Source of the DNA: an uncultured virus (IMG/VR IMGVR_UViG_3300035698_015449)
Taxonomy: Duplodnaviria; Heunggongvirae; Uroviricota; Caudoviricetes
IMG/VR virus record: IMGVR_UViG_3300035698_015449
Length of the DNA: 20,000 nucleotides
Reading direction: 5' to 3' (one strand)
Every line of letters starts with the position of its first letter. The first letter of the stretch is position 1. Made by a program: the position numbers and the translations under genes. The notes below the pieces were generated by a model. It had not been told where the DNA came from. It did no database searches and saw only the letters and a list, made by a program, of their open reading frames with translations. Shown piece by piece: positions 2,298 to 17,216 of the stretch.

Positions 2298-2334
2298 ATC
2301 TCGCTCCTGTTTTTTATTGTCAATCTCTGGAGAC

Positions 2335-2342
2335 ATTATACA
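2335..2342 (-). promoter_or_regulatory. Sigma70-type -10 element (TGTATAAT)
   Basis: Lies just downstream of the last dnaE piece and about 40 nt upstream of ATG 2297; no good -35. Confidence 0.45.
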
Positions 2343-2352
2343 TTAAACTCCG

Positions 2353-3063
2353 TTAGATTTTAATTCCTTTCCCGCCTAGTTTGGAAAAGATATTGTTTCC
2401 ACCGTACTGCTCCATTCTCTCGTCTTGTTTCTTCTTCTGTTTTTTCTCTTTGTCAACAAGAGCCTTCACTGTAGTATATTTATCCAACAAAGTCTCTTTA
2501 CCAATCTTCCAACTCTCCTGCATACAATCAGCTTCAACCAAAGATTTAAACACTTTGCTATGAACCTTTCTTGTGTCAACTGTATGTAAGAAGTCTCTCA
2601 AGTCCGCAAACGGTTGATTATCTACAATACTCTGAACAGCTTTTTCTCCTACGCCACCAATAATCGTCAAAGGTGTCCTTATTCCATCCCTCTCTTTGCC
2701 CGATTTATCATCAACGAATGTAGCTATTTTATATTTAGTACCGCTTTTGTTAATACATGGCCCGTTAATAATAAGCCCCATACGTCTTGATTCGCTCTGA
2801 TAGGACTCAAGCTTAATCCCCTTATCGCTGTTATTGATCTCAGACGACAAAAGATTACACATGTACTCTAAAGGATAGTAAACTTTGAGCCAAGCCGTTT
2901 GATAAGCCAACATAGCATAAGCTGCGCTGTGAGAGTTTTTCGTGTAAAGCCCTCTGCCGCAAGGACTTATGATTTTGTAATTATGTTGCTCGCCTGCCAT
3001 AGTCACGTTATATGTTGTTTGCTTCCCTAATGACCTAATAGATTTTACTCTGCACTTTTTCAT
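2353..3063 (-). CDS. dnaE: DNA polymerase III alpha, piece 3 of 3: split-intein C half (43 aa) plus C-terminal extein (fingers/HhH region)
   Basis: MKKCRVKSIRSLGKQTTYNVTM..QHNY..LYTKN, then SHSAAYAMLAYQTAWLKVYYPLEYM (DnaE motif), PCINKS and IGGVGEKAV (HhH). RBS AAGGAG lies inside the upstream HEG. Confidence 0.95.
   Translation of the reverse strand: MKKCRVKSIRSLGKQTTYNVTMAGEQHNYKIISPCGRGLYTKNSHSAAYAMLAYQTAWLKVYYPLEYMCNLLSSEINNSDKGIKLESYQSESRRMGLIINGPCINKSGTKYKIATFVDDKSGKERDGIRTPLTIIGGVGEKAVQSIVDNQPFADLRDFLHTVDTRKVHSKVFKSLVEADCMQESWKIGKETLLDKYTTVKALVDKEKKQKKKQDERMEQYGGNNIFSKLGGKGIKI
2935..3063 (-). mobile_element. Split intein 2, C-terminal half (IntC2)
   Basis: Basic N-terminus, block F-like TYNVTM..HNY, terminal Asn followed by a Ser nucleophile; penultimate residue is Lys. 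Confidence 0.9.
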
Positions 3064-4150
3064 ATTTTCTCCTTAAATAAAAATCGTTCTTATCATTATA
3101 CATCCAACAAAACGCTTTGCAAATCTGTTTCTCCCCTCCAAGAGTTCTTAGATTATAGATATATCCTGTTTTTGTTTTTTGTCCCGTTACCGACCAAACA
3201 AACTGGTTTATGCTTGTCAAGTCAGTCAAGAAATCTTTACTAGCTGAAGTAAGAGATAGCCAAGGATATCCATTCTTCTTTAAACCAACCGTTCCATCCC
3301 CATCAATAAGTCCCCTGAAAAATGAACTTAAAAACTCATCAGGAACACATCCATTATACCTCAATATCTTCGTCTTACGCTTTACTACTCCTAACTTTTT
3401 TAAATCTTCTGCAATCTTTCGGTTATGAACGGTTAAACGTATCATATCTTTAGCGTTTGAAAATCCAACTTTAGTTCTTTTATGCGAACAGTCTATCTTT
3501 TGAACAGGATGCGTTTTAGATGCGCCTATAAGATCCCCTATCTTTTCAAGTATATATCCGTCTTCTTCTGTTAGTTGTATTTCAAATCCATTATAGTCTT
3601 TGATAATATTACCATCTGTCATTATCAGACCAAGAACGTATGCTTTTTCGTGACTATTAATTTTCTCAAAAAATGATTCATCGTAATGAGTTTGTATCTT
3701 TGGTTCTCTTCGTTCAATTCCATATTTATCTAGGATTTGATATACGGTTTCCTTCCTCTTGTATCCTATTGAATCAACTATCTGCTTTCCTGTTCTACCT
3801 TTTTCATAAAGTTGTATTACTTTTTGTTCTAATTGATCTGACCGCTTACTATTCCATGCTACTCGTTTCGCTTGCTTTACTTTGTATTTCTTCCTTATGC
3901 GGCAAAGGCCATAGTAATTCACGCCCGTTTGTTCTGAGACTTTGCATAAAGAAAGCCCCTTTGTATACGAGATATGGCACAGCATTTGATAATACCGCTC
4001 TCTTACCGCTTGCCAATTGTTTTCCTGAATCACTCTCCGTATTACTCGCTCCGTTAAATCCGTTTGGCGTTCTATCTCCTTCATTTCCTTTTTTTGGAAG
4101 AACAATTTGCGGATCTTCTTTTGTAATTGTTTCGGTATCGGTTGTTTCAT
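3035..4150 (-). CDS. Free-standing LAGLIDADG homing endonuclease with N-terminal HTH-like repeats (HEG1)
   Basis: Two motifs, AYVLGLIMTDG and FFRGLIDGDG; C-terminal LRRKY; GGGAGG RBS. Confidence 0.9.
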   Translation of the reverse strand: MKQPIPKQLQKKIRKLFFQKKEMKEIERQTDLTERVIRRVIQENNWQAVRERYYQMLCHISYTKGLSLCKVSEQTGVNYYGLCRIRKKYKVKQAKRVAWNSKRSDQLEQKVIQLYEKGRTGKQIVDSIGYKRKETVYQILDKYGIERREPKIQTHYDESFFEKINSHEKAYVLGLIMTDGNIIKDYNGFEIQLTEEDGYILEKIGDLIGASKTHPVQKIDCSHKRTKVGFSNAKDMIRLTVHNRKIAEDLKKLGVVKRKTKILRYNGCVPDEFLSSFFRGLIDGDGTVGLKKNGYPWLSLTSASKDFLTDLTSINQFVWSVTGQKTKTGYIYNLRTLGGEKQICKAFCWMYNDKNDFYLRRKYEKVQSKIY

Positions 4151-4619
4151 TTTCGGCCTCCCATATTTTATGCTGCTGCTTATGGGATACTTCTGTAAGA
4201 TACTGCGAATCTCCTTCTAATTTTATGATTTTATTTTTTAGTTCATTATTACGATTACCTATCATATACCCCACCAATACAGAAAAAATACATGTAATAA
4301 AAACAGATATGATTTTTATTTTTATTTCACTCCATATTACATCATCCATGTGAAGTTTTTTGTTATCTAGATTGCATTGTTGAATTTCTATATTGTCTCC
4401 CTCTATACTCCCATGATTCGCATACGTTTGAGCATTCTCACTTACACTTTCAGCGCCATATGACACAGCAGTAGATAAATCTTTTTCTCGATCAATAAAT
4501 GGTTCGGTAGGGTAATCAATAAATTTTACGAAAAGGAATTTTAATGGGTTGTTGAACCTTGTCCCAAATTTATCTTTAGGATAACTAATATATTTCATCA
4601 AGAACGGCTTAATCTTCAT
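3849..4619 (-). CDS. Putative membrane-anchored hypothetical protein; last ~100 codons overlap HEG1 in another frame
   Basis: ATG 4619 with GGAG RBS overlaps the end of dnaE piece 2; hydrophobic segment IISVFITCIFSVLVGYMIG; fills the otherwise empty 4150-4609 gap. Confidence 0.5.
   Translation of the reverse strand: MKIKPFLMKYISYPKDKFGTRFNNPLKFLFVKFIDYPTEPFIDREKDLSTAVSYGAESVSENAQTYANHGSIEGDNIEIQQCNLDNKKLHMDDVIWSEIKIKIISVFITCIFSVLVGYMIGNRNNELKNKIIKLEGDSQYLTEVSHKQQHKIWEAENETTDTETITKEDPQIVLPKKGNEGDRTPNGFNGASNTESDSGKQLASGKRAVLSNAVPYLVYKGAFFMQSLRTNGRELLWPLPHKEEIQSKASETSSME
4159..4217 (-). promoter_or_regulatory. SigmaH-like promoter plus RBS-occluding hairpin for HEG1
   Basis: GAAGGA-N18-GAAGTA; stem TCCCATA (4187-4181) / TATGGGA (4165-4159) overlaps GGGAGG. 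Confidence 0.75.
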
Positions 4620-4956
4620 ACAAAATCTCCAATTCTTCATGCACAATGTCCTGCAAAGTATGTGCTTCCCCGTCAGAACAAATAAACTTATGATCCATTG
4701 TGCATTTTATCACAACACCATTATCAAGTTGAACTTCAAATAGCTCTCTCTCGCCAACTTCAAAAACATCTACCACGACATCTTCTACGATTTCCCCATC
4801 TTTAAATGACTTAAGAATTATCTCAGGTGTTTCAACTTCCTCACCCGCTCCAAATTCCTTCCATCCTTGATAATTAAAGAACCATTTCTCTAAGTCTTCT
4901 AATCTATAGACTTTCCCATCCTTTTCGTTTAGGACTTCGGTATCTCCAGAGAGACA
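4609..4956 (-). mobile_element. Split intein 2, N-terminal half (IntN2)
   Basis: Block A CLSGDTEV and block B CTMDHKF, acidic composition, followed by a stop codon. Confidence 0.93.
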
Positions 4957-6300
4957 TTTGTTGAATCCATACCCACCGAAGTATTCGATCTGTTCAAATA
5001 TCGCTTTTGCAGTTCTTTCGTCAATATCACATTCGGCCTTACAACCCTCAATGAACAGAGTGTCAAGCTTTTCTTTCTTGATCAACTCAGGTTTCTTCTT
5101 ACCCACAACCTTTCTCAACCAGTCTGCCTGACCTAGAGTAAATCCTGCGAGCTTCTGTACAACCTTCATGATGTTCTCTTGGAAAACCATGATCCCGTAA
5201 GTCTCATCCAAAACCTCTCCCATCTTAGGATGCAAATATTCGATTTTCTTACGGCCATGCTTGTAGTCACTGTAAAGGTCGTGAACTCCTGCACCTAATG
5301 GGCCGGGACGATACAAAGCATTACATACAACCAAATCATTGAACGTATCAACATGGATGTTCTTTAACAATTTAGAGATGCCATGAGCTTCAAACTGGAA
5401 TATACCCCTATTGTCCATATTTTTGTATTTACCATTAAATAAATCAAATACCTTAGGATCATCAGGCTCAAGTACATCAACGTCTATATACGTCCCGTAA
5501 CGGCTCTTAATCATCTGAACAGTATCCTCTATTACCGTCAGAGTCTTCAAAGCCAACATATCGAACTTGAGCAAACCAAGATCATCAACCTCTTCCATGA
5601 CAAACTGAGAGCAGATAGCGCCCTTAGACTCCCTCAAAGGAATGTGGTTTACAACAGGCTCTTTACAAATAATGATGCCAGCAGGATGCACTCCCGCAGA
5701 TGATACAGTGTTCTCAACATGTCTTGTCGTATCGAGTAACTTAGGGTTCTTTAACATCTCTCTTCTGAATGACTCATCCTCTTTAAGTGCTTGTTCAATG
5801 GTCATGCCGGGACTATTGGGGATTTGTTTGGCAATGAAGTCCGCCATATCCAAACTCCTTTTTGTCATCTCAACTTTTTTATCAGGGTTACGCTTCTTAG
5901 CTGCCTGATAAGTCTCCCAATCATTACCAATATCCAACGCTTTAGCCGCATATCTAACCGCAGCCCTTGCTTTGAATTTGTTGTACGTCCCAATTTTGCA
6001 ACAATACCCCTCTCCATACTTACGAATGATGTAATCAAAGATCTCATCTCTACGATAGTAATCAAAGTCAATATCTACATCAGGGGGACTTACACGCTCA
6101 GGGTTGATGAATCTTTCAAAAAGTAAACCGTACTTAATTGGGTCAAGTTTCGTAATACCTAGAACATACAAACACAAACTGCCTGCTCCAGAATTATGAA
6201 CTGACAACCCATCTATATTGTATGCGCTCAAATCCTTAACGGTAAGATCATGAACTTTTCCTTCATACTTAGTCTTTTTGATGCTTTTTATTTTAGCCAT
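4609..6300 (-). CDS. dnaE: DNA polymerase III alpha, piece 2 of 3: IntC1 (36 aa) + catalytic palm/thumb/fingers + IntN2 (115 aa)
   Basis: ...GLSVHN|SGAGSLCLYVLGIT, LLFERFINPERVSPPDVDIDF (catalytic Asp residues), HPAGIII, LLKFDML, GIFQFE, LYRPGP, ETYGIMVFQE, GYGFNK|CLSGDTEV...KCTMDHKF. Confidence 0.97.
   Translation of the reverse strand: MAKIKSIKKTKYEGKVHDLTVKDLSAYNIDGLSVHNSGAGSLCLYVLGITKLDPIKYGLLFERFINPERVSPPDVDIDFDYYRRDEIFDYIIRKYGEGYCCKIGTYNKFKARAAVRYAAKALDIGNDWETYQAAKKRNPDKKVEMTKRSLDMADFIAKQIPNSPGMTIEQALKEDESFRREMLKNPKLLDTTRHVENTVSSAGVHPAGIIICKEPVVNHIPLRESKGAICSQFVMEEVDDLGLLKFDMLALKTLTVIEDTVQMIKSRYGTYIDVDVLEPDDPKVFDLFNGKYKNMDNRGIFQFEAHGISKLLKNIHVDTFNDLVVCNALYRPGPLGAGVHDLYSDYKHGRKKIEYLHPKMGEVLDETYGIMVFQENIMKVVQKLAGFTLGQADWLRKVVGKKKPELIKKEKLDTLFIEGCKAECDIDERTAKAIFEQIEYFGGYGFNKCLSGDTEVLNEKDGKVYRLEDLEKWFFNYQGWKEFGAGEEVETPEIILKSFKDGEIVEDVVVDVFEVGERELFEVQLDNGVVIKCTMDHKFICSDGEAHTLQDIVHEELEILYED
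6193..6300 (-). mobile_element. Split intein 1, C-terminal half (IntC1)
   Basis: MAKIKSIKKTKYEGKVHDLTVKD..AYNIDGLSVHN followed by Ser; canonical His-Asn end. Confidence 0.95.
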
Positions 6301-7232
6301 GCCTTAATCCTCTTCTTTATTGCGTCAGTTTTTTCATTATTGTAAAATGTTATTTCAGAATAATATCTTTTATAAAATGGTTTAAGATAAGTTTCTCTTT
6401 TTACAAATATACCTAAATCAAACAAATCCTGAAATCCATATACAACATACATTATACCAAACTCCTTTCTTGCTGCTTTAAATTTTTCATGGAAGTTGTT
6501 ATACTCCTTCGACCCTTTAATTTCAACGATTCTTTTTTTATCATTGCTATAGGTAACTATGAAATCAGGATAATACTGCCGTTTTTTACCTTTATCGTCT
6601 TTATAAGCAATACTCCCCTTATATCTTTCAATCTTTTTTATACTCTTAGAGTCCCAACAAAAACATAGAAAATACAATTCCCAACTACTATCAAATCTGA
6701 TACCTCGTATTGTACCGCTTATAAAAGATTTTGAACATCTTTTTTCTGCATACATCGGATCGGATTTCATTAATTTCAGTTGGGCATCTCTTTGCTTTTT
6801 TAAAACCTCCGGTCTATTTTGCGCTATCAATTGAGCTTTTGAATTACTATCCTTCCATTTGTCAGTATTTGTAGCAAACTTTAGGGAACATTTTTTACAG
6901 ATAGGTTTGGTTCCACAAATCTTCCTTTTTTGCATAGCTAAAATCTGCATAACACTATCTTTGCCACATTCTTGACATTTAAATTTTACTTTCTTTTTAG
7001 TTTTTAAAGAATTTATACAAGGTTGTACTAATTTATAATCCCAATATTCATCATTTAGCTTATCCTGCAACTCAACCGGATAGTAATCAACTCCGTATTT
7101 TCCGCCCCTACTATATTTTTTGTAGCATTTCGGACAAATTGGCTCTGAAGTTTTTTCCCTTCTTCTTTTTAAACATCCTCTTTGAATTTTAAAATCATTA
7201 CCACAATCCTGACATTTCATTCTAACACTCAT
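6288..7232 (-). CDS. Free-standing putative homing endonuclease: CxxC zinc-binding repeats plus TnsA-N-like PD-(D/E)xK nuclease (HEG2)
   Basis: CQDC, CPKC, CQEC, CKKC; C-terminal FDSSWE...YYPDFIV...IVEIKG; sits between the halves of split intein 1. Confidence 0.8.
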   Translation of the reverse strand: MSVRMKCQDCGNDFKIQRGCLKRRREKTSEPICPKCYKKYSRGGKYGVDYYPVELQDKLNDEYWDYKLVQPCINSLKTKKKVKFKCQECGKDSVMQILAMQKRKICGTKPICKKCSLKFATNTDKWKDSNSKAQLIAQNRPEVLKKQRDAQLKLMKSDPMYAEKRCSKSFISGTIRGIRFDSSWELYFLCFCWDSKSIKKIERYKGSIAYKDDKGKKRQYYPDFIVTYSNDKKRIVEIKGSKEYNNFHEKFKAARKEFGIMYVVYGFQDLFDLGIFVKRETYLKPFYKRYYSEITFYNNEKTDAIKKRIKAWLK

Positions 7233-7235
7233 AAA

Positions 7236-7290
7236 ATAACCTCCTTAACTTTATTAGGTTATATTCTTGATGAATGCCAAAACCTCCTCC
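7236..7290 (-). promoter_or_regulatory. SigmaH-like promoter plus RBS-occluding hairpin for HEG2
   Basis: GGAGGA-N18-GAATAT; stem ATAACCT (7262-7256) / AGGTTAT (7242-7236) overlaps AAGGAGGT. Confidence 0.75.
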
Positions 7291-7317
7291 TTTAAACTCC
7301 AACTCGTACAACCAACC

Positions 7318-7611
7318 TCAAACGACTCCCTCTCTAATATCAAATATTTCATCATCAGTAGTTAGTTTTCCTGCTTCAACCCATATAAGGTCTCCTTTGC
7401 GATCAATATGAATCTTATGATCGCTTGTGCATGAAAACCGCCTTCCGTCTTCTAACTCTATTTCTATTAATTCCTCATCTACATCATATTCTAAAACATT
7501 TAAAACATCATGATACTTTCCATCATAAGATAAAACTTTATCATTTATACAAACATCTTTAATATTTTTTATTCCGTCCTTACACTCAACCTTAGACTCT
7601 GGTGTAAAACA
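7318..7611 (-). mobile_element. Split intein 1, N-terminal half (IntN1)
   Basis: Block A CFTPESKV, block B CTSDHKI, WVEAGKLTTDD, then a stop codon. Confidence 0.95.
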
Positions 7612-8715
7612 CCCCCTACCAACACCAACTCGAATTCCTTGCTGATTAGCGTAGTTAATAATATCCCAAAGCGTAAGGAAGTATTTGACAAACCCACAAC
7701 CAATAATCAAGCTCATCTCCATCTTGATACGTTCTCTGTATTCAGGTTTATCTAGAAACCCCTTCAATTGCATCCCGTCTTTCACTAAAGCCTTAAGATA
7801 CATGTCACCGCTAGTAAACCCTTGTGGAACCTTGAAAGTAGGCAACAGGTCTTCAGATGGTGTTAATATCGCTCCCTTCTCTACCTTTTCTGCAATCTCA
7901 ACCGTATTGCTCATCATTTCGGGAGCGCTCTTGTACAACTCTTGCATCTCTTCATACGGCTTAAGGTAGAATTCATTTCCGTTGAAAGTGAAACGTTTAG
8001 GATTTTTTATATGGTTATGGGTTTGCATGGCAAGCATGACATCATGATACGGCGCATCAGTTCGGTTGGCATAATGAGCGTCATTGGTACAAACGGTTTT
8101 GATGTCGAGCTTCTTAGCCAACATATACATTTGCTTGGCTAGTTTTCGTTCACGGTCTTCTTGATCCTTGGATGCCTCAAAATATTTGTGCATCATGATC
8201 TCAATGTAAAAATCGTCCCCGAATAACTCTTTATGCTCATTTGCAAAAGTAATAGCCCCGCTCTCATCGCCCTGCCATAGCTTTGCAGGGAACTCTCCTA
8301 TGCAACAAGCGCTTAGACAGATCAAGCCCTCATGATACTTCTTAAGTAATTCAAAATCAATTCTAGGCTTTCTATACTTACCTTCAATCTCGGCAATGGT
8401 TGAAAGCTGCATTAGGTTCTTAACCCCGGTTCGGTTCTTAGCTAAAAGCACCAAATGGTATCTTGGATCTTTGGGATCTCTAGATTTGTGGTCAGGACAA
8501 GTGTAAACTTCATTGCCCAATATTGGCTTAACGTCTTTAGCTAAACAAGTCTTCTGAAAGTTATACCATCCCCCGCAAGTTCCGTGATCTGTTATTGCTA
8601 AGGAATGAGAACCATTAGCTATACAGGCATCTACCATTTCCGTTGGTGATGAAAGCCCGTCTAATGCGCTGTAGTAACTATGATTGTGTAAATTAACGAA
8701 TCTGTCTTCTGTCAT
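7318..8715 (-). CDS. dnaE: DNA polymerase III alpha, piece 1 of 3: PHP domain plus IntN1 (97 aa)
   Basis: FVNLHNHSYYSALDG, AITDHG, PILGNE, YHLVLLAKN, KPRID, LSAC, TNDAHY, ...GIRVGVGRG|CFTPESKV...SCTSDHKI. Confidence 0.97.
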   Translation of the reverse strand: MTEDRFVNLHNHSYYSALDGLSSPTEMVDACIANGSHSLAITDHGTCGGWYNFQKTCLAKDVKPILGNEVYTCPDHKSRDPKDPRYHLVLLAKNRTGVKNLMQLSTIAEIEGKYRKPRIDFELLKKYHEGLICLSACCIGEFPAKLWQGDESGAITFANEHKELFGDDFYIEIMMHKYFEASKDQEDRERKLAKQMYMLAKKLDIKTVCTNDAHYANRTDAPYHDVMLAMQTHNHIKNPKRFTFNGNEFYLKPYEEMQELYKSAPEMMSNTVEIAEKVEKGAILTPSEDLLPTFKVPQGFTSGDMYLKALVKDGMQLKGFLDKPEYRERIKMEMSLIIGCGFVKYFLTLWDIINYANQQGIRVGVGRGCFTPESKVECKDGIKNIKDVCINDKVLSYDGKYHDVLNVLEYDVDEELIEIELEDGRRFSCTSDHKIHIDRKGDLIWVEAGKLTTDDEIFDIREGVV

Positions 8716-9194
8716 GCGTCTCCCTGATCGAATATTTTGGTTTCATAAGACTTCACCCTTGCATATATTACCTGATGTATGAAATGCAATAGCTTATCTA
8801 CGAATTCAACCCAATTGTAACTATCGAAGTCAATATCCCTTATGACCTCATTCTCTTCAAAATTCAAACCCGACATATGTGAGTAGTGAGCAGTTTTGAC
8901 AGTAATGTTTGAACCATCAGTATATACGTAAACGGACTTGTCATATCCCTTTTTAGTCAACTTGAAAGAAAAACAGGAGACATCTCCGTTCATCTCAGGC
9001 CCTTCTATTACATGGTCAATAACACCTGATTCTACGAAACATTTGACGATAGTTGCGATCCTCGTAGCCATACGCTTTACGACTAACTGATGATCTGATG
9101 TGATTTTGTACGGGATTTGTCCAACAGCTTCTACAAAGTTTTTATGCGTCGAATCTACCCTCTCTTTGATAAATGGAATGTTAAGCATGCTCAT
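8712..9194 (-). CDS. Hypothetical protein
   Basis: 160-aa ORF with 4-nt ATGA overlaps to both neighbours. Confidence 0.8.
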   Translation of the reverse strand: MSMLNIPFIKERVDSTHKNFVEAVGQIPYKITSDHQLVVKRMATRIATIVKCFVESGVIDHVIEGPEMNGDVSCFSFKLTKKGYDKSVYVYTDGSNITVKTAHYSHMSGLNFEENEVIRDIDFDSYNWVEFVDKLLHFIHQVIYARVKSYETKIFDQGDA

Positions 9195-9805
9195 ATTTTC
9201 CCTCCGTATTTTTGGATCAACAATTTTGTCATTTCAAGGACTTGCTCTTCGGATAGAGATGTTGTGTCAATCACTTCAACAGGAATGTCAAATGTTTTGA
9301 GATAACGTGGCAATTCCTCACGATAAAGTCGAATTAACTCAACCATCGTTTCTCGCTCCTGAGTCCATCTGCATTTTCCATGTTCAGGATTTTTTTCACG
9401 CTCTGCAATGACCCTATTAATAAGCTCATTGTCGTCTCCATCAAGAAGGATCACTAAATCAATCTGCTCATCAGGATCGATAGTATGTTCCAAAAAATCG
9501 ACAGATAACCCCTGCAATAAGCATTGGTATATGTAAGTTGATGTCCACCATCTGTCGGCTATGACTGCTGACGATTTGCCTTTAACGCAATATAGATACT
9601 CATCTAATCTCGCTGCGCTAAACAACATGAATTGGACTCGTTTGTCTATGCCTGTCCATGGTTCAGTTCCCCTGCAAGCTGATCGTAACATTTTTGCTAA
9701 TGGGGTTCCGTTAGGACTTGACAAAGTGATATACCCTTTATCAGAAAGGTTGTTGATTAGGGATGTTTTCCCAGCTCCGTTTGGCCCCTCTACTACACAA
9801 AACAT
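9191..9805 (-). CDS. tmk: Thymidylate (dTMP) kinase family protein
   Basis: P-loop VEGPNGAGKTS, LFSAAR and IADRWWTSTYIYQ motifs. Confidence 0.9.
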   Translation of the reverse strand: MFCVVEGPNGAGKTSLINNLSDKGYITLSSPNGTPLAKMLRSACRGTEPWTGIDKRVQFMLFSAARLDEYLYCVKGKSSAVIADRWWTSTYIYQCLLQGLSVDFLEHTIDPDEQIDLVILLDGDDNELINRVIAEREKNPEHGKCRWTQERETMVELIRLYREELPRYLKTFDIPVEVIDTTSLSEEQVLEMTKLLIQKYGGKI

Positions 9806-9862
9806 AATTGCCCCTTAGATTTACATCGTTAATAATTTAAATTCATTGATAACTTCCTTTCT

Positions 9863-9872
9863 ATTATACAGC
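9863..9872 (-). promoter_or_regulatory. Sigma70-type -10 element (GCTGTATAAT) upstream of the tmk-dnaE run
   Basis: Identical 10-mer to 409-418, intergenic. Confidence 0.55.
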
Positions 9873-9884
9873 CAATCATGCTCC

Positions 9885-10694
9885 CTAATGATAAAGATTT
9901 TTGTACTTTTGCCTTTTACGATCCATATATATTGTGGAATCTTCATACATCCAATTTAATATCTTATAAGCATTTTTTCCGCTATAACCTATGTGTCCCG
10001 CTTTAAAGTGTTTATTTGCTATATATGGGGCATATTTATTTTTAGATTTTAATTTTATATGAAGCTCCTGTACCCAATATTGTGAAACTGGATCTAACAA
10101 ATCGTATTCTCCTGCTATACTTATTAGGCAAACATGATTTTTTGGGACAGTTACACACCCATCTCCATCAAATAATCCTCGAATGAAATGCCTATGGTAT
10201 AACTTTGGGATTAAAGTTAGTGGATGAATCTCAACTTTTTTCCCCCTGCATAATCCAAAATTAGATTTGAGGTCATTTATAAACCAAGAACCACAAATAT
10301 CTACAGACACATATTTTGGGTAGCTTTCATCACGATGGGCATGACGATATTCCCCCACTTCTCTATCACATTTTATGCAATTAAGAAATTTTTTCAAATG
10401 TAATTTATCAACCGAACTTATTTTTATATGAACAATATCTCGATCCTTTCTGATATGTCCATCTGCCCATAAAAACCCCGCCCAATAGCAGCTTTCTTCT
10501 GTAAAGGCATTAAAAAAGTCCACATTATACTCATAGTGTGGACTTCCCTTTCTAATAGAAATATTACTACGCTTAATAATCCGTTGAATTGTTGAGCGAT
10601 GAACATTAAATCTTTTCGACAATTCTCCAGTTCCTATGCCTTTTCCATATAGTTCTAATATTTTATCGCACACTTCATTTTTTATTCTTTTCAT
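9885..10694 (-). CDS. Free-standing LAGLIDADG homing endonuclease with N-terminal HTH (HEG3)
   Basis: CYWAGFLWADG and FIRGLFDGDG; start reassigned to ATG 10694 (MKRIKNEV) after GGAGG. Confidence 0.9.
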   Translation of the reverse strand: MKRIKNEVCDKILELYGKGIGTGELSKRFNVHRSTIQRIIKRSNISIRKGSPHYEYNVDFFNAFTEESCYWAGFLWADGHIRKDRDIVHIKISSVDKLHLKKFLNCIKCDREVGEYRHAHRDESYPKYVSVDICGSWFINDLKSNFGLCRGKKVEIHPLTLIPKLYHRHFIRGLFDGDGCVTVPKNHVCLISIAGEYDLLDPVSQYWVQELHIKLKSKNKYAPYIANKHFKAGHIGYSGKNAYKILNWMYEDSTIYMDRKRQKYKNLYH

Positions 10695-10695
10695 C

Positions 10696-10745
10696 TTACA
10701 TCCTCCAATACCATGTAATTCAACATTTGGAAGATGCATTCCTTT
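10696..10745 (-). promoter_or_regulatory. SigmaH-like promoter plus hairpin enclosing the RBS of HEG3
   Basis: AAAGGA-N18-GAATTA; stem TTACAT (10718-10713) / ATGTAA (10701-10696) with GGAGG in the loop. Confidence 0.7.
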
Positions 10746-11530
10746 TATTGTTTTTCAAAAATGTCTTGAATCTTTGACCTCATTTCTAAATGTGTTTTAG
10801 GTGATGGTGAAATTTTCCATTTACCCCTCATTGCTGTCCCTTTATCTGATGTTATCTCAACCAGTTCTTTAAAAGCTACAAATCCAGTTTTCCTTTCTTG
10901 TTGAACATCATTCCAATTTATTCCATGTGTACTAAAAAGCATTTCTTGCATCTCAGAGCTATTTTTATTTTGAAGTTGCTTATGACTAAATTTTGATTGT
11001 GCCAACATGGATATTGAATTTCTAAGGGCATCATTTTGTCTCCATATGAAGTAATTATTTACATCTGACTCGGGAATGTTGAAACAACGACAATCGAACA
11101 TAGGCCAATTCTCGTCCCATGTTAAAATGTTCTCATCACCGGGATAATGAGCGCCAGCGATTGACTCTTTAGAAAGAATCTTGCAAAGTTCAGCCGTAGC
11201 CATACTTGAAATGACAGAAACAATCTTCTGTACGTTGTAATCAAAGTACGAATCCGTATTTACTTTGTCGTAATCAGTAATAAGAATAGAGATCTCATCT
11301 GAGTGACGTTCCGCAAATTTTGCCCCTTGGACGTTCTCGCAAATGAACTTCATAGCCCCATTCATACTCTCATTAAAGAGTTTGTCATAAGGACGTTCAA
11401 AACGTTTACAAAAAGTCGAAAAACATTTACCGTCAACCCTAACGACAACAGGAATACGACGAACCAAACGGGTTTTAGATACCTGTTCGTAAATTTTCAT
11501 CCTGTCTCCGAGCGCATCATTTTTATTCAT
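10745..11530 (-). CDS. tRNA(His) guanylyltransferase Thg1-like protein (3'-5' polymerase family)
   Basis: VVRVDGKCFSTF, SDEISIL, QKIVS, FDCR, YFIWRQNDALRNS and GINWND motifs. Confidence 0.93.
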   Translation of the reverse strand: MNKNDALGDRMKIYEQVSKTRLVRRIPVVVRVDGKCFSTFCKRFERPYDKLFNESMNGAMKFICENVQGAKFAERHSDEISILITDYDKVNTDSYFDYNVQKIVSVISSMATAELCKILSKESIAGAHYPGDENILTWDENWPMFDCRCFNIPESDVNNYFIWRQNDALRNSISMLAQSKFSHKQLQNKNSSEMQEMLFSTHGINWNDVQQERKTGFVAFKELVEITSDKGTAMRGKWKISPSPKTHLEMRSKIQDIFEKQ

Positions 11531-11531
11531 T

Positions 11532-12341
11532 TTATCTCCAATACTTCTCTTTTAACTGATATTTTCCATTATAATTTTGTTTCCTTTTACCGTTCGTCCT
11601 ATCGGTAAACTGCCTGCCACAACCTGAACATAAATATTTCTGCTCTCCTCTTATTTTTCCATTTTTACTTATTTCGTATCCTTTACAAAAGGCACATGGA
11701 GGTAAAGCGGGAATAGAACTAAATAGTCTATACTTAGGATCTCTCCATATATCAGCCTTTCTTTGCAAAGGGAAGCCTAGATCTATAGCTTTTAAAAACT
11801 TCCTACAATCATCGGTTCTTATCAGTCGAATTGTTGGAAAAGAGTCGTCTAAATACATTTTGAAATCAACTTTGTATAAACGATTTAGTGACTCTACTAA
11901 AAACTCAACCTCATTTATTGAAAAGCCTTGTGTCGCCAACTTAACATCAAATCTTAACTGATTTAGTTTGTCCTTTGGAGGGATTACACATCCATCATCT
12001 GCCATCCAAACCTGAACCGTCTCGTTGTTGAGTTTCAAATCATTAGGTACTTCTTTTATCCCATTACAATACCACTTATCGTGACATTCTGTAAATATTG
12101 CACTACATCTACTTCTCAAACATATCTGATAATAAGTTTTACCCGTCCTTTTATCAAATGTCTTCTTTTTATAGACCCCTTTTGGCGTGATATACTCTTT
12201 TAATAATTTAGCACTCCACACTAAATAATCTTCATCAGTTATAACTCTGTTTATCTTCAAACTAGCATTATAACTTAACTTTCTACGCTCTAAGTATCCA
12301 TCACCTAACATTAATCCGTTTAATAAATTTTCTATCTTCAT
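11532..12341 (-). CDS. Free-standing LAGLIDADG endonuclease with C-terminal zinc ribbon (HEG4)
   Basis: GLMLGDGYL, WMADDG, LATQGFS; C-terminal CAFC..KNG...QKYLCSGCGRQF. Confidence 0.88.
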   Translation of the reverse strand: MKIENLLNGLMLGDGYLERRKLSYNASLKINRVITDEDYLVWSAKLLKEYITPKGVYKKKTFDKRTGKTYYQICLRSRCSAIFTECHDKWYCNGIKEVPNDLKLNNETVQVWMADDGCVIPPKDKLNQLRFDVKLATQGFSINEVEFLVESLNRLYKVDFKMYLDDSFPTIRLIRTDDCRKFLKAIDLGFPLQRKADIWRDPKYRLFSSIPALPPCAFCKGYEISKNGKIRGEQKYLCSGCGRQFTDRTNGKRKQNYNGKYQLKEKYWR

Positions 12342-12403
12342 GTTTCATACTCCTTATTTTATTGTATGAAACGTATTTCTGCACAACCGTAACGCATCCC
12401 TTT
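12342..12403 (-). promoter_or_regulatory. SigmaH-like promoter plus hairpin enclosing the RBS of HEG4
   Basis: AAAGGG-N18-GAAATA; 9-bp stem GTTTCATAC (12372-12364) / GTATGAAAC (12350-12342) closing over AAGGAG and ending next to the ATG. Confidence 0.75.
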
Positions 12404-12411
12404 AAATTTCC

Positions 12412-12834
12412 TTAAACCTTGTCTGCCACCAAATCCGCATCTGACGGTTCTCTAATTAACAACTTGGGGAGCTTCTGATTTGTTGGATTCGGCTTTGGAG
12501 TAACCCTACGTCTATTCACTTTCTTCGCCTTCTTTTGTTGATTCTGCTTCTTCTGTTGATTTGGCTTCGCCTTTTGTTCTGGTGCGGCAACAGGGTCATG
12601 CGCCAAATATGACTTAATTTGCAATATCGAAATTGCATGGTCAGGCGTCAAATAAATGTACCCGCACTCAAACGCATCTTGCATGAATTGTTCAAAGTTT
12701 TCTCTGTACGACACGCTATCGCTGAAAACCGTATTTCTCTCGCTGAATGGTGCCAACGCAGATTGCAACTCGGTTACGAATATACCACCTTCTTCTTGAA
12801 CATCTTCATATATAACTTTAACATATTTCCTCAT
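12412..12834 (-). CDS. Hypothetical protein with basic Q/K-rich tail
   Basis: 140-aa ORF, AAGGAG RBS. Confidence 0.75.
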   Translation of the reverse strand: MRKYVKVIYEDVQEEGGIFVTELQSALAPFSERNTVFSDSVSYRENFEQFMQDAFECGYIYLTPDHAISILQIKSYLAHDPVAAPEQKAKPNQQKKQNQQKKAKKVNRRRVTPKPNPTNQKLPKLLIREPSDADLVADKV

Positions 12835-12905
12835 TGATACTCCTTTGTATAATATAGCAACATTACATTATAACCTAAAACCGTTGAAATACAAGGACTT
12901 AAATT

Positions 12906-13577
12906 ATGGCGAACATACATATCATAGAGGACTTTAATTCCTTTGACCGCATAAAAGAAGAAATGGAACTTCATCACATAGAAAAATTCCGTTCATATGA
13001 ACATTTTGCTACATGGAAAAATGAATGCAGAGCGTGTCCCATTGGTAAAGTTTATGATCAAGTTATTCAAAGTAGCGGAAATACTGTAAATCCGAAAGTT
13101 GTAGTCGTGGGAGAGGCCCCGGGAGCAGACGAGTTGGATGCAGGTAAACCATTCGTCGGCAAATGCGGTAAACTGTTACGAGCTACATTAGAGAAAGCAG
13201 GGTTTAATGACGAGAATTCACTAATCACAAATACGATTCCCTGTAGACCCGAAAACAACAAATTTCCCAAAGATGATACCATTGTGAAAAACTGCAAAAG
13301 CATGTGGCTTAAATCAGAACTTCAAATCCTTAATCCCGATTACTTACTCTTGATCGGCAGTCAGTCATTGAAATTCCTTTTAAACATACGAGGCATTACC
13401 AAAGCTCACGGTATATGGAACAAACGTAAACTTAATGGGAAAGTAATTCAAATCATGCCTACGTTTCATCCATCATACATCTTAAGGGTTCAATACTCTC
13501 CTGATAAAAAATACATCGTACAGGAGTTTGAGAATGACATTATGAGAGTTGGGAAAACCGCAGGATTCATTCAGTGA
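12906..13577 (+). CDS. Uracil-DNA glycosylase family 4 (Fe-S type)
   Basis: CRACP, VGEAPGADE, PFVGKCG, TNTIPCRP, FHPSY; four Cys consistent with a 4Fe-4S cluster; the only convincing plus-strand gene. Confidence 0.93.
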   Translation: MANIHIIEDFNSFDRIKEEMELHHIEKFRSYEHFATWKNECRACPIGKVYDQVIQSSGNTVNPKVVVVGEAPGADELDAGKPFVGKCGKLLRATLEKAGFNDENSLITNTIPCRPENNKFPKDDTIVKNCKSMWLKSELQILNPDYLLLIGSQSLKFLLNIRGITKAHGIWNKRKLNGKVIQIMPTFHPSYILRVQYSPDKKYIVQEFENDIMRVGKTAGFIQ

Positions 13578-14035
13578 TGGATAATCTTGATAGCATCTAG
13601 TCTGAACTCATGCGGTTGCCTTCTCCAATATTTTCTTATCTTCCCAATGTTCTTCAGTTCCTCAAAAATCATATCTAACGGAGATGATAAAAAATCGGCT
13701 TCAGTGATATCAATATGATTTGCCGTTTTGGACAGAACTTGGGCCAATAACGCTTCTGATCGTTTTTCAATTTCCTTTTCTAGTCGAGGCTCAACATGCC
13801 GCTGACTAATTTTCGGATAGTAACCTTCAGCCATACGAGATTTATTTGAATACTTTTTATTCTTTTTAGGTTTACCTTCAGTTACCTTTACATAACACCA
13901 CAATACAGATACGAGTATACCTAATCCAATCAGCAAATATGGCATCAACGAAACAATCCATACAAGAAAGCCCATCACGGTCAATCCTGCAATGACCGAT
14001 AATACAAACTTAAATATTTCCCAAAAAGGTGGCAT
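13571..14035 (-). CDS. Hypothetical membrane protein (two N-terminal TM segments)
   Basis: Hydrophobic first ~48 aa; GGGG RBS; start coupled to the upstream stop. Confidence 0.7.
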   Translation of the reverse strand: MPPFWEIFKFVLSVIAGLTVMGFLVWIVSLMPYLLIGLGILVSVLWCYVKVTEGKPKKNKKYSNKSRMAEGYYPKISQRHVEPRLEKEIEKRSEALLAQVLSKTANHIDITEADFLSSPLDMIFEELKNIGKIRKYWRRQPHEFRLDAIKIIHH

Positions 14036-14529
14036 TACATCCCCTTGTTAAACTGCTTGGCATACTCATAAAGAACAATGGACGCCGCTACAGCTACGTT
14101 CAAGCTATGGGGCTGACCGTATAAAGGTATTTCAATAACCTCATCTAATTCATTCAACAATTCCTGCTTCATTCCCTTGCATTCATTACCTACAATAAGA
14201 AAAATAGGCTTGAACGGAAACTCATAAGCATGTATGTTGCAAGAGCTTGTGGACTGCTCAATGCCCACGACATGATACCCGTTCTCTTTATATCTTCTCA
14301 TTACAGGAAGGATGGATCTATGGTGTATTATTTCAAGAGAACAATCTCTGGAGATATGTGGGTTTACCCGATTCTGACCCGATGTAATAAAACGACTTGC
14401 TCCCATACAACTAGCGGTACGAGCAATCATAGATACATTGTCGTTGTTCTTCATTGGTGGACAAGCAACAACTATATCAAAACCGTAACTACCTAGTGGC
14501 TCTCTTTTTACCTGTTCAAAGTGTCCCAT
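14035..14529 (-). CDS. SpoU/TrmH-family RNA methyltransferase (SPOUT)
   Basis: NVSMIARTA, IVGNECKG, IEIPLYGQPHSLNVAVAASI; start probably ATG 14529 (the ORF track extends it to 14583). Confidence 0.9.
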   Translation of the reverse strand: MGHFEQVKREPLGSYGFDIVVACPPMKNNDNVSMIARTASCMGASRFITSGQNRVNPHISRDCSLEIIHHRSILPVMRRYKENGYHVVGIEQSTSSCNIHAYEFPFKPIFLIVGNECKGMKQELLNELDEVIEIPLYGQPHSLNVAVAASIVLYEYAKQFNKGM

Positions 14530-14755
14530 TGAGCGACCTGACTGCAAAAATCTCAAGAGGAAGAACCTGTCCCGCTTCCCCATTTTTGCTTTTTAACACA
14601 GACACATTCCCACCATTATCAATTCGTCCAACTACATGTGCCTCTGCGATTTCTTTTTTTGTATATCTATATGCTTGGGTATTTGTACCAGACCCCGAAT
14701 CAAAACCGTCCGGGAATCCTGCGTCTCTTTCGTCCATTAACAATACTTTAATCAT
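14516..14755 (-). CDS. Hypothetical protein
   Basis: 79 aa, AAGGAGG RBS, ATGA coupling. Confidence 0.65.
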   Translation of the reverse strand: MIKVLLMDERDAGFPDGFDSGSGTNTQAYRYTKKEIAEAHVVGRIDNGGNVSVLKSKNGEAGQVLPLEIFAVRSLNGTL

Positions 14756-16113: not shown

Positions 16114-16476
16114 TGGTGGAAGCGGGGGGGTTCGAACCCCCGTGTTGTACGAGAATTAACATAATCTCATTCACATGCTTAGTTGATTGATTAAGGATCT
16201 AACAACAAATCCTTCTCAGTTCTTGTCCTGAGTTGCAAACTGTCTTGCCAGCTTGTCAGGTTTCTAAAGGCTTTCACCACTTGCCACCTTGTAAATGACG
16301 TTACTAGGGGTTACTAAGACTATCTCACCCTGTTCTCGGGTTGCTTTATTTAAGCAGCCATTGCTAAACGTGTTTCGCCGTTTATTGCGTTTTCATGGAA
16401 TATTAAAGAGGCCAACCATGATCCTCTGCATGCGACTATATCTATTCATTCGCCAATCGATACCAAATTCGCTCCC
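16114..16476 (-). ncRNA. ssrA: tmRNA (363 nt), tag peptide (A)GETRLAMAA
   Basis: Acceptor stem GGGAGCG/CGCTTCC with G3:U, discriminator A and encoded CCA; T arm GGGGG-TTCGAAC-CCCCC; pk1 stems AGAGG/CCTCT and TCATGG/CCATGA; ATAAAC then GGC GAA ACA CGT TTA GCA ATG GCT GCT TAA (16379-16350). Confidence 0.95.
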
Positions 16477-17216
16477 TTTTTTATTTTACTGGGTTTTTCA
16501 GCCCATTCCTTTAGTTTATCCAATTTGTATTTATAGCAAACCGGCCATTTAAAATTAAGCAATCCTTCTGCAATTTTTGACTTATTGGTAACATTACTTT
16601 TTATATATATGCTATGATCTTTGGTAATAGTGGCAGTTAATCCGTAATTCCCCAATTTCTTAATTAATATTTCCAAAGAGGATTTGTCAAATCCCATCGT
16701 GCATATCTTGAAACTTCCCCGTTCTATATTCCCATCGCCCAACAACCAGTGCGACAAAACCTCATCGTCTATTTCCAATTCATCAGGAACATGCTTTTTA
16801 CCATTAATATACCATTTTTTTCTTAGTCCCTTAAAATTTGAACGAGTCGCCAGAAGAGTTCTATCATAATAGTTACCAGTTCTTTTTTCAAGCCTGTGAT
16901 CATCCCACAAATTAACGTGAATCCCCAATTTACCAAATTTACTTTTTAAAAAATCGGCGTATTCTCTATATTTGGTGGTATGTGCGTACTTCCCTCCTAA
17001 TCCAATAGACCCATCTCCCAATAATTCTCCAATAATCCAATTTGGGGTTTTTTCACATTGTTTAGCCTTAATCCTATTCCTTTTTAGATTTAAAGATTCA
17101 GATTTTTTTTGTATAGATTTCCAAGTTCTTTCAGGAAATAATTTAAGAACATCACTCTTTTTGAATTCTCCCCACACCTTACATAAAAGATCAGTTTGAC
17201 GCCCATCCCATTTCAT
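16446..17216 (-). CDS. Free-standing LAGLIDADG endonuclease with N-terminal Myb/HTH-like region (HEG5); overlaps the tmRNA 5' end
   Basis: WIIGELLGDGSI, HWLLGDG, ICTMGF; last 31 nt lie inside the tmRNA. Confidence 0.88.
   Translation of the reverse strand: MKWDGRQTDLLCKVWGEFKKSDVLKLFPERTWKSIQKKSESLNLKRNRIKAKQCEKTPNWIIGELLGDGSIGLGGKYAHTTKYREYADFLKSKFGKLGIHVNLWDDHRLEKRTGNYYDRTLLATRSNFKGLRKKWYINGKKHVPDELEIDDEVLSHWLLGDGNIERGSFKICTMGFDKSSLEILIKKLGNYGLTATITKDHSIYIKSNVTNKSKIAEGLLNFKWPVCYKYKLDKLKEWAEKPSKIKKGANLVSIGE

Follow-up and report, generated by a model that had tools for sequence, protein, structure and literature searches.

How can a replicative DNA polymerase be produced from a gene that is broken in two places? 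This question is raised by a stretch of 20,000 nucleotides (nt), hereafter the window, from an uncultured virus of the Caudoviricetes (IMG/VR record IMGVR_UViG_3300035698_015449), in which dnaE consists of three open reading frames (ORFs), all on the minus strand, for proteins of 465, 563 and 236 amino acids (aa). The most likely answer, judged from comparative sequence analysis, is that self-splicing inteins join the three proteins into one chain. The locus very probably represents a phage replicative DnaE with two independently mobile cassettes, each made of a split intein and a free-standing endonuclease, which is trans-spliced into an enzyme of 973 aa. The three-piece DnaE is real and probably functional, is built from known parts, and is common in its clade.

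The evidence begins with the exteins. Cutting the three products at GRG/C, HN/S, FNK/C and KN/S (a slash marks the cut) leaves three exteins (368, 412 and 193 aa) and four intein halves (97, 36, 115 and 43 aa). The exteins sum to 973 aa, as the original prediction had calculated, and they tile end to end and without gaps onto the intact DnaE of L002 (978 aa) and of L003 (984 aa), both syntenic relatives; this bears out the proposal of a three-piece enzyme. Piece 1 matches L002 at 62% over L002 residues 6-371; the extein of piece 2, which spans SGAGSL to GYGFNK, begins at residue 372 and continues past the GFN motif; and that of piece 3 (54%) aligns to residues 787-978 and shares its C-terminal end with the intact relatives. 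The DnaE profile NF004226 is likewise covered in turn by pieces 1, 2 and 3 (2-366, 366-752 and 751-914). The breaks map to G363/S364 (site A, GRG/S) and K758/S759 (site B, GFNK/S) of the Escherichia coli Pol III alpha subunit, and both fall within conserved active-site motifs. The C-family features present are the PHP domain, a palm with three Asp, the fingers and the HhH domain, with piece 2 carrying the equivalents of E. coli D401, D403 and D555, which we take to be the catalytic Asp residues. No profile match to an OB-fold or to the C-terminal domain was obtained in the window DnaE, and the intact relatives stop at the same place.

The second line of evidence comes from the intein halves. 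The original prediction had proposed to check all four with intein hidden Markov models (HMMs); this succeeded for the N-terminal halves (IntN), both of which exceed the TIGR01445 cut-off of 24.5 bits, but neither C-terminal half (IntC) gave a match of its own to the C-terminal intein HMM in profile searches, and IntC-A and IntC-B were identified via motifs, conservation and a predicted complex. That the two inteins are different, as had been claimed, is upheld by the 27 identities in 84 aligned columns between IntN-A and IntN-B and by their best matches among solved structures, which are the gp41-1 intein for IntN-A (E 1.3e-5) and DnaE inteins for IntN-B (E 1.4e-8 to 3e-5). A likeness of intein A to the IMPDH-1 halves in the supplement of Dassa et al. 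was seen by eye and carries no score.

Class 1 inteins hold Cys or Ser at position 1, a terminal Asn, and Cys, Ser or Thr at position +1 (according to the accessible part of PMC4031507), and both pairs of the window present Cys1, terminal Asn and Ser+1. These positions formed part of the patterns by which homologues were selected, and their invariance was not counted as evidence. Outside the selection patterns, the block B TxxH is invariant in IntN-A (8/8 alleles) and IntN-B (38/38), the His-Asn end is found in all 26 IntC-A alleles, and all 39 IntC-B alleles hold QHNY. Class 1 inteins are less strict about the assisting residues, which are F4 Asp, F13 His and a penultimate His. The block F His of IntC-A is present in 18 of the 26 alleles and is a Ser in that of the window, while IntC-B never shows the penultimate His (0/39) and has Asn (34) or Ser (5) at F4. 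Two histidines help in the cyclisation of Asn (PMC4031507), and in the window each C-half retains one of them, the penultimate His in IntC-A and that of block F in IntC-B. When the four halves were compared with four relatives, the proportion of nonsynonymous differences (pN) was 0.13-0.33, with a near-saturated synonymous value (pS) of 0.63-0.86.

A complex of IntN-B with both IntC halves was also predicted, in which IntC-B scored 0.88 versus 0.01 for the best of three controls, a mark reached by 116 of 157 solved pairs and by 2 of 215 mismatched pairs. The runs agreed in 97% of contacts, with a predicted local distance difference test (pLDDT) value of at least 84 for the partner, and confident contacts were listed solely for IntN-B with IntC-B, although IntC-A was present as a competitor. 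Because solved inteins resemble this pair, the pass may reflect memory, and the model therefore shows likeness and not binding. A single-sequence AlphaFold2 model of the contiguous intein B of a relative, L041, reached a pLDDT of 40 and was not used.

In the proposed mechanism, three precursors would be made from the co-oriented genes; the IntN-A of piece 1 would capture the IntC-A of piece 2, whose IntN-B would in turn capture the IntC-B of piece 3. Each pair would then follow the class 1 route, with a thioester at Cys1, attack by Ser+1 and Asn cyclisation, and the product would be a 973-aa enzyme like the DnaE of the intact relatives. Because the order of the middle piece (IntC-A, extein, IntN-B) is that of cyclisation, effective orthogonality of the two pairs is required: pairing of the wrong halves would either make piece 2 circular, with loss of the catalytic segment, or join piece 1 to piece 3.

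Each break holds further genes (Table 1). Nuclease 1 and nuclease 2 are predicted free-standing endonucleases, and the original claim of a different family in each break holds, with PF08722 in break A and PF14528 in break B, both over their cut-offs. The final 13 nt of nuclease 1 overlap the start of piece 2, and the final 29 nt of nuclease 2 overlap piece 3, so that the AGGAG ribosome site and ATG of piece 3 are held in its 3' end, the former in its last codons. Pieces 2 and 3 each have their own ribosome site and ATG, whose position is conserved in all IntC alleles. A second nuclease 1 allele shows 18 listed differences, 15 of them synonymous.

The content of break B had been described correctly as far as the LAGLIDADG gene is concerned, but a second gene, ORF X (256 aa, 4619-3849), had been missed. 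It shares its final ~300 nt with nuclease 2, which is read in a different frame; its 156 free codons have a gene-like codon score of 0.18 (0.01-0.31 for 16 window genes), and the chance of such a stop-free run is ~7e-7. No homologue of ORF X was found in Pfam, PHROGs, Atlas, the examined loci or a protein search (0/138 candidates, E up to 1), and two NCBIfam matches at E 0.04-0.07 were disregarded. Passenger genes may be able to settle in the gap of break B. With regard to expression signals, fractured genes (discussed below) have a hairpin ahead of the endonuclease start, often together with a T4 late promoter. The hairpin z values of the nuclease leaders are 0.39 and -0.17 in the window, while z is -2.8 or lower in 6 of 9 leaders of relatives. 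The sequence TATAAATA, sought in connection with this feature, was not found in the locus; a promoter and terminator scan stayed at chance level (27 vs 21.5 +/- 4.4); and an Rfam search of positions 2300-8800 with E up to 1 gave no match. Two relatives present other ORFs in break B: one of 94 aa that runs into nuclease 2 (L043, 7666-7950), and one of 101 aa in place of most of nuclease 2, which shares the start ATG of ORF X within the end of IntN-B (L051, 7541-7846).

Table 1. Features of the fractured dnaE locus (window positions; cut-offs in brackets).
Feature	Positions	Strand	Description
DnaE piece 1	8715-7318	-	465 aa: extein of 368 aa ending GVGRG, then IntN-A of 97 aa
Piece 1 extein, 368 aa	7612..8715	-	PHP domain and palm start, ending GRG (E. 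coli G363); PF02811 E 2.5e-46, PF07733
IntN-A, 97 aa plus stop	7318..7611	-	Cys1, block B T-x-x-H, net charge -12; TIGR01445 30.1 bits
Nuclease 1, 314 aa (break A)	6288..7232	-	CxxC zinc-ribbon-like repeats and TnsA-like PD-(D/E)XK; PF08722 37.3 bits (26.5)
DnaE piece 2	6300-4609	-	563 aa: IntC-A of 36 aa, extein of 412 aa, IntN-B of 115 aa
IntC-A, 36 aa, ending VHN	6193..6300	-	Block F Asp, penultimate His, terminal Asn, Ser+1; net charge +3
Piece 2 extein, 412 aa	4957..6192	-	Palm, thumb, fingers; PF07733, PF17657; aligned to E. coli Pol III alpha 363-758
IntN-B, 115 aa plus stop	4609..4956	-	Cys1, block B T-x-x-H, net charge -21; TIGR01445 42 bits
ORF X, 256 aa (break B)	3849..4619	-	ATG overlaps piece 2 stop; orphan, one hydrophobic stretch (103-121)
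Nuclease 2, 371 aa (break B)	3035..4150	-	HTH-like N-terminal repeats and two-motif LAGLIDADG; PF14528 45.3 bits (22.5), phrog_4645 E 5e-46
DnaE piece 3	3063-2353	-	236 aa: IntC-B of 43 aa, extein of 193 aa from SHSAAY
IntC-B, 43 aa, ending TKN	2935..3063	-	Block F His (QHNY), Asn in place of Asp at F4, no penultimate His, terminal Asn, Ser+1; net charge +8
Piece 3 extein, 193 aa	2353..2934	-	S759 equivalent through HhH domain; PF14579

A significant part of the argument relies on the recurrence of the same layout. A search with piece 2 gave 5423 matches among 8000 scored candidates, with proteins longer than 986 aa outside its range, and the best 120 were classified. Of these, 13 are double-ended middle pieces split at both A and B, with the same breaks as the window at 53-79% identity; 21 are split at B only, 10 at A only, and 2 combine a split A with a contiguous B, the rest being intact (69) or unscorable (5). 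The double-split excess (13/10/21/69, Fisher p 0.004) was rejected as evidence, the query having favoured such forms. A search with piece 3 gave 52 matches, and the same IntC starts most of the best 38. Of 38 loci that were examined, five are three-piece, namely L034 and L035 (near-identical), L039, L040 and L043. The search of phage sequences for this layout that the original prediction had suggested was therefore successful, and its description of the arrangement as a rarer one is accurate for the literature but not for the clade. Nuclease 1 homologues occupy the same place in 7 of 8 loci split at site A and nuclease 2 homologues are found in 5 of 8 split at site B, and neither was found in the intact loci among the 38.

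Outside these relatives, one of 31 candidate stretches from the genome collection, a 3-kb contig of a metagenome-assembled genome, is split at B. No cultured phage with more than 40% identity to the piece 2 extein was found among the 25 best of 1299 records, nor any site B intein or second split at GFNK/S among 50,697 phage records. As for the window itself, contigs from two other runs match with 0 differences across the piece 2 stop (4526-4713), the overlap of nuclease 2 with piece 3 (2801-3208) and the piece 1 stop (7268-7616). These two runs, which contain most of the locus, are salt-lake metagenomes with shares of 0.44 and 0.28, and either is possibly the source sample. The join 3070-4678 in one contig of run X2 has a side of 30 letters and was too weak for use. 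The clade also presents a third intein site, YGIM/C, with a contiguous intein that holds a LAGLIDADG domain (L001 6888-11000; L034 and L035; P0017 and P0028); in L034/L035 this third intein lies in the middle piece, and three splicing events are required.

The history of the two cassettes was addressed with an unrooted tree, built by a quick method from 115 rows of the middle extein (P0028 and the five unscorable rows omitted). The 13 double-split rows involve 10 changes among grouped rows, at least 7 of them forced by starred branches, and are not more clustered than in shuffles (90 of 500 as low); several split alleles have intact sisters with a support of 99-100. In the IntN-B tree (42 rows), P0002 and L033 stand apart from the window, though their exteins belong to its 100-supported clade, on unstarred branches of moderate support (86-92). 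Because the states are scattered on the polymerase tree, they suggest two independently mobile intein-plus-nuclease cassettes that have repeatedly met in one gene, and independent movement of the two would fit the data. Repeated gain and repeated loss are indistinguishable on the unrooted extein tree. The cassettes would have spread by nuclease homing into empty dnaE alleles, giving the three-piece state where both land, with later loss of nucleases and, at times, an intein B that is contiguous again.

Both later stages have candidates among the relatives. Both nucleases are gone from L039 and nuclease 2 from L042, and in each case the last codons of the nuclease remain, with the ribosome site and the ATG; the nuclease-free loci also retain the stop, and their site B gaps measure ~24-30 nt. 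A contiguous intein B, as a mini-intein, occurs in four sequences (L041, L044/P0032, L054 and P0042) that do not form one clade (approximately unbiased test, p 0.0008). Two of them preserve the former ribosome site and ATG: the linker of L054 retains AAGGAGAAAGTATG, 13 of whose 14 letters equal the split allele L042 and which is now out of frame, and that of L044 retains AAGGAG and an in-frame ATG. We read these contiguous alleles as re-fusions of split alleles; the fusion of L054 could be a one-base sequence error, and the intein B of L041 may instead be ancestrally contiguous.

Several observations weigh against two trans-splicing events. The three catalytic Asp residues are all in piece 2, and non-covalent assembly is possible in principle. 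The F4 Asp and the penultimate His are missing from IntC-B, as is the block F His from the IntC-A of the window, although inteins that splice with no penultimate His have been described, according to titles of published work. The sign of the charge does not separate the pairs, since both have an acidic IntN and a basic IntC, and the counts given above lean to split forms because the query carried both halves and proteins above 986 aa lay outside the search. The first of these points would suit a polymerase in which one pair or neither splices and the intein halves mainly clasp the pieces together non-covalently, as would the non-canonical F4 and penultimate positions of IntC-B and a DnaE break in L088, L098 and L146 with short residue-poor intein-like ends, with no Cys1 or Asn. 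This alternative is considered very unlikely: Cys1, the block B Thr and His, a C-terminal His assistant, the terminal Asn and Ser+1 are conserved in 8-39 alleles per half, excision is required where intein B is contiguous within a single-chain DnaE (L041, L054) and where related contiguous inteins stand at or next to site A in the cultured phages 949 and PhiF1, and both sites lie inside conserved active-site motifs. It is also highly improbable that both pairs splice without being strictly orthogonal, with kinetics, co-translational capture or extein folding giving the product together with some cyclic piece 2 or joined pieces 1 and 3. The shared charge polarity (mean net charges of -13.6 and -15.5 for the IntN of A and B, and +3.6 and +6.1 for the IntC) and the presence of IntC-A and IntN-B on one chain are in keeping with it, and the cassettes also occur singly (31 of the best 120 matches), so that co-evolution is not required. 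However, the halves are distant from each other (the IntN identities given above; IntC of 36 versus 43 aa) and differ in their best solved matches, the cognate IntC-B was modelled on IntN-B despite the competitor, and unrelated natural split inteins have been reported to be orthogonal (in the accessible part of PMC11766414). As the charge polarity is the same, the separation of the pairs must come from shape, with an IntC-A of 35-37 aa and an IntC-B of 42-44 aa.

The two remaining explanations, of which removal at the RNA level and assembly artefact had been raised by the original prediction itself, are disfavoured by the recurrence, the difference-free junction contigs and the lack of Rfam matches. 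Removal of the nuclease genes from the RNA as introns, or their bypass in translation, with the inteins splicing in cis, is extremely improbable. Rfam intron models overlook divergent introns, which counts for this possibility; against it stand, besides the empty search, the ribosome sites and ATGs of pieces 2 and 3, conserved in position, and the nuclease-free loci, in which the stop and both start signals persist. In favour of an assembly artefact, or of a decaying pseudogene complemented by the host polymerase, is the fact that the contigs of other runs each cover only part of the locus. These explanations are scarcely credible and already largely refuted by the recurrence of the breaks (13 middle pieces and 5 of 38 loci), by a pN far below pS throughout, and by the junctions bridged in other runs.

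Trans-splicing of both pairs therefore remains the preferred interpretation, and under it the window dnaE is a doubled variant of the fractured genes reported by Dassa, London, Stoddard, Schueler-Furman and Pietrokovski in 2009 (PMC2677866). As far as the accessible text of that paper goes, both affect a conserved replication enzyme, DnaE being among the hosts; both have an N-part with IntN, a free-standing endonuclease and an IntC with the C-part on one strand; endonuclease-free derivatives exist in both; and the 3' end of the endonuclease overlaps the start of the IntC gene (6-69 bp there, 13 and 29 nt here). In the same text each described locus is in two parts and the nucleases are GIY-YIG or Vsr-like, whereas the window dnaE shows two breaks and three pieces with TnsA-like PD-(D/E)XK and LAGLIDADG nucleases, a role for the latter having been predicted there. 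The steps in its Figure 5 legend do not include a return to a nuclease-free contiguous mini-intein, which is how we read the contiguous alleles among the relatives of the window. The DnaE-1 locus of that paper is fragmentary and includes a portion of a further intein, so that it may be another such gene that went unrecognised.

The cyanobacterial split DnaE (Ssp/Npu) is also obtained via trans-splicing, with an acidic IntN and a basic IntC, and it shares with IntC-B the lack of the penultimate His (on the cyanobacterial side, according to the title of a paper). Contrary to the window, it has a single split in unlinked genes and no nuclease (accessible part of PMC2677866); the second split of the window, at GRG/S, lies ~400 residues upstream of the cyanobacterial-type Y/CFNK insertion point. 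The cyanobacterial junction is EY/CFNK with Cys+1 (accessible part of PMC2664965) and site B is YGFNK/S with Ser+1, four residues downstream, exactly as originally predicted. Engineered tandem trans-splicing also joins three segments with two orthogonal split inteins (PMC12707363; bioRxiv 10.1101/546465, both in part), and the order of the middle piece is the IC-target-IN order used for cyclisation in SICLOPPS (PMC2874743, in part). Those systems were built by hand, whereas the pair of the window is natural and sits in one gene. In the literature, of which subscription journals were thinly covered, three-segment splicing was found only as an engineered method, and no natural double-split gene was found. 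With regard to site A, Lactococcus phage 949, Methanobacterium virus PhiF1 and Bacillus phage G (gp329) have a related IntN at or within 1-2 residues of the GRG motif, in inteins that are contiguous in one ORF, whereas intein A of the window is split.

Other phage DnaEs at greater distance are also interrupted. L088, L090 and L098, as well as L094 and L146, encode DnaE in three ORFs. They present a split intein that looks live and sits one residue downstream of site A, with a nuclease 1 homologue in L088 (31%, E 4e-18), and a further break whose short intein-like ends enclose an HNH gene. PHROGs 13169 and 21652 match in length. L088, L090 and L098 were rejected as precedents since their second break lacks splicing residues. 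The two halves of the L129 DnaE (3713-8295), separated at site A, flank an ORF that is GIY-YIG-like by eye. Bacillus phage G (L156, gp329-331) combines a contiguous intein close to site A with an interruption near the catalytic motif, and gp329 is followed by an annotated homing endonuclease gene. In L064 (4903-7990) the break in DnaE comes shortly before the catalytic PDVD motif; its ends resemble an insert but not an intein, and the ORFs overlap. L073 (G002 53500-58500) has an intact DnaE and a split-intein-fractured RNA ligase gene with two ORFs between the halves.

The assignment of the window to a phage rests on its IMG/VR relatives and on gene content, and the polymerase is probably needed by the phage. 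Its closest relatives, with the same flanking genes, are found in IMG/VR as virus records of 161 and 186 kb whose completeness is put at 87% and 82%; L001 has RecA and primase genes downstream, and no match to a terminase profile was found in two related virus records. Four free-standing LAGLIDADG ORFs occur in the 20 kb (3035-4150, 9885-10739, 11532-12341 and 16446-17216), the second of which belongs to the PHROG family of nuclease 2, yet is 23% identical to it. A transfer-messenger RNA gene at 16114-16476 on the minus strand (Rfam RF00023, 82 bits; tag peptide GETRLAMAA) overlaps with its 5' end the end of the ORF at 16446-17216. Genes for thymidylate kinase, tRNA-His guanylyltransferase (Thg1), uracil-DNA glycosylase and a SpoU methylase are found at 9191-14583, that for uracil-DNA glycosylase being the sole long plus-strand gene of the window.

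On balance, and with some reserve, we favour the view that this locus represents natural three-segment tandem trans-splicing, so far undescribed, in which an orthogonal pair of inteins acts on an essential polymerase and orthogonality would be kept since cross-pairing would cyclise the middle piece; the clade would then show the full cycle, from invasion and double fracture to the loss of nucleases and re-fusion on several occasions, and fission would be reversible. Tandem trans-splicing is regarded as an engineering method, one that depends on orthogonal inteins, which are scarce. In this clade, nature would supply two intein families, with 8-39 alleles per half and one unusual C-half, working side by side on one chain. 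Moreover, since at the same two sites the clade includes alleles that are intact, split once or twice, free of nucleases or apparently re-joined, it would make models of the origin and fate of split inteins testable, including the question of whether an intein break is one-way.

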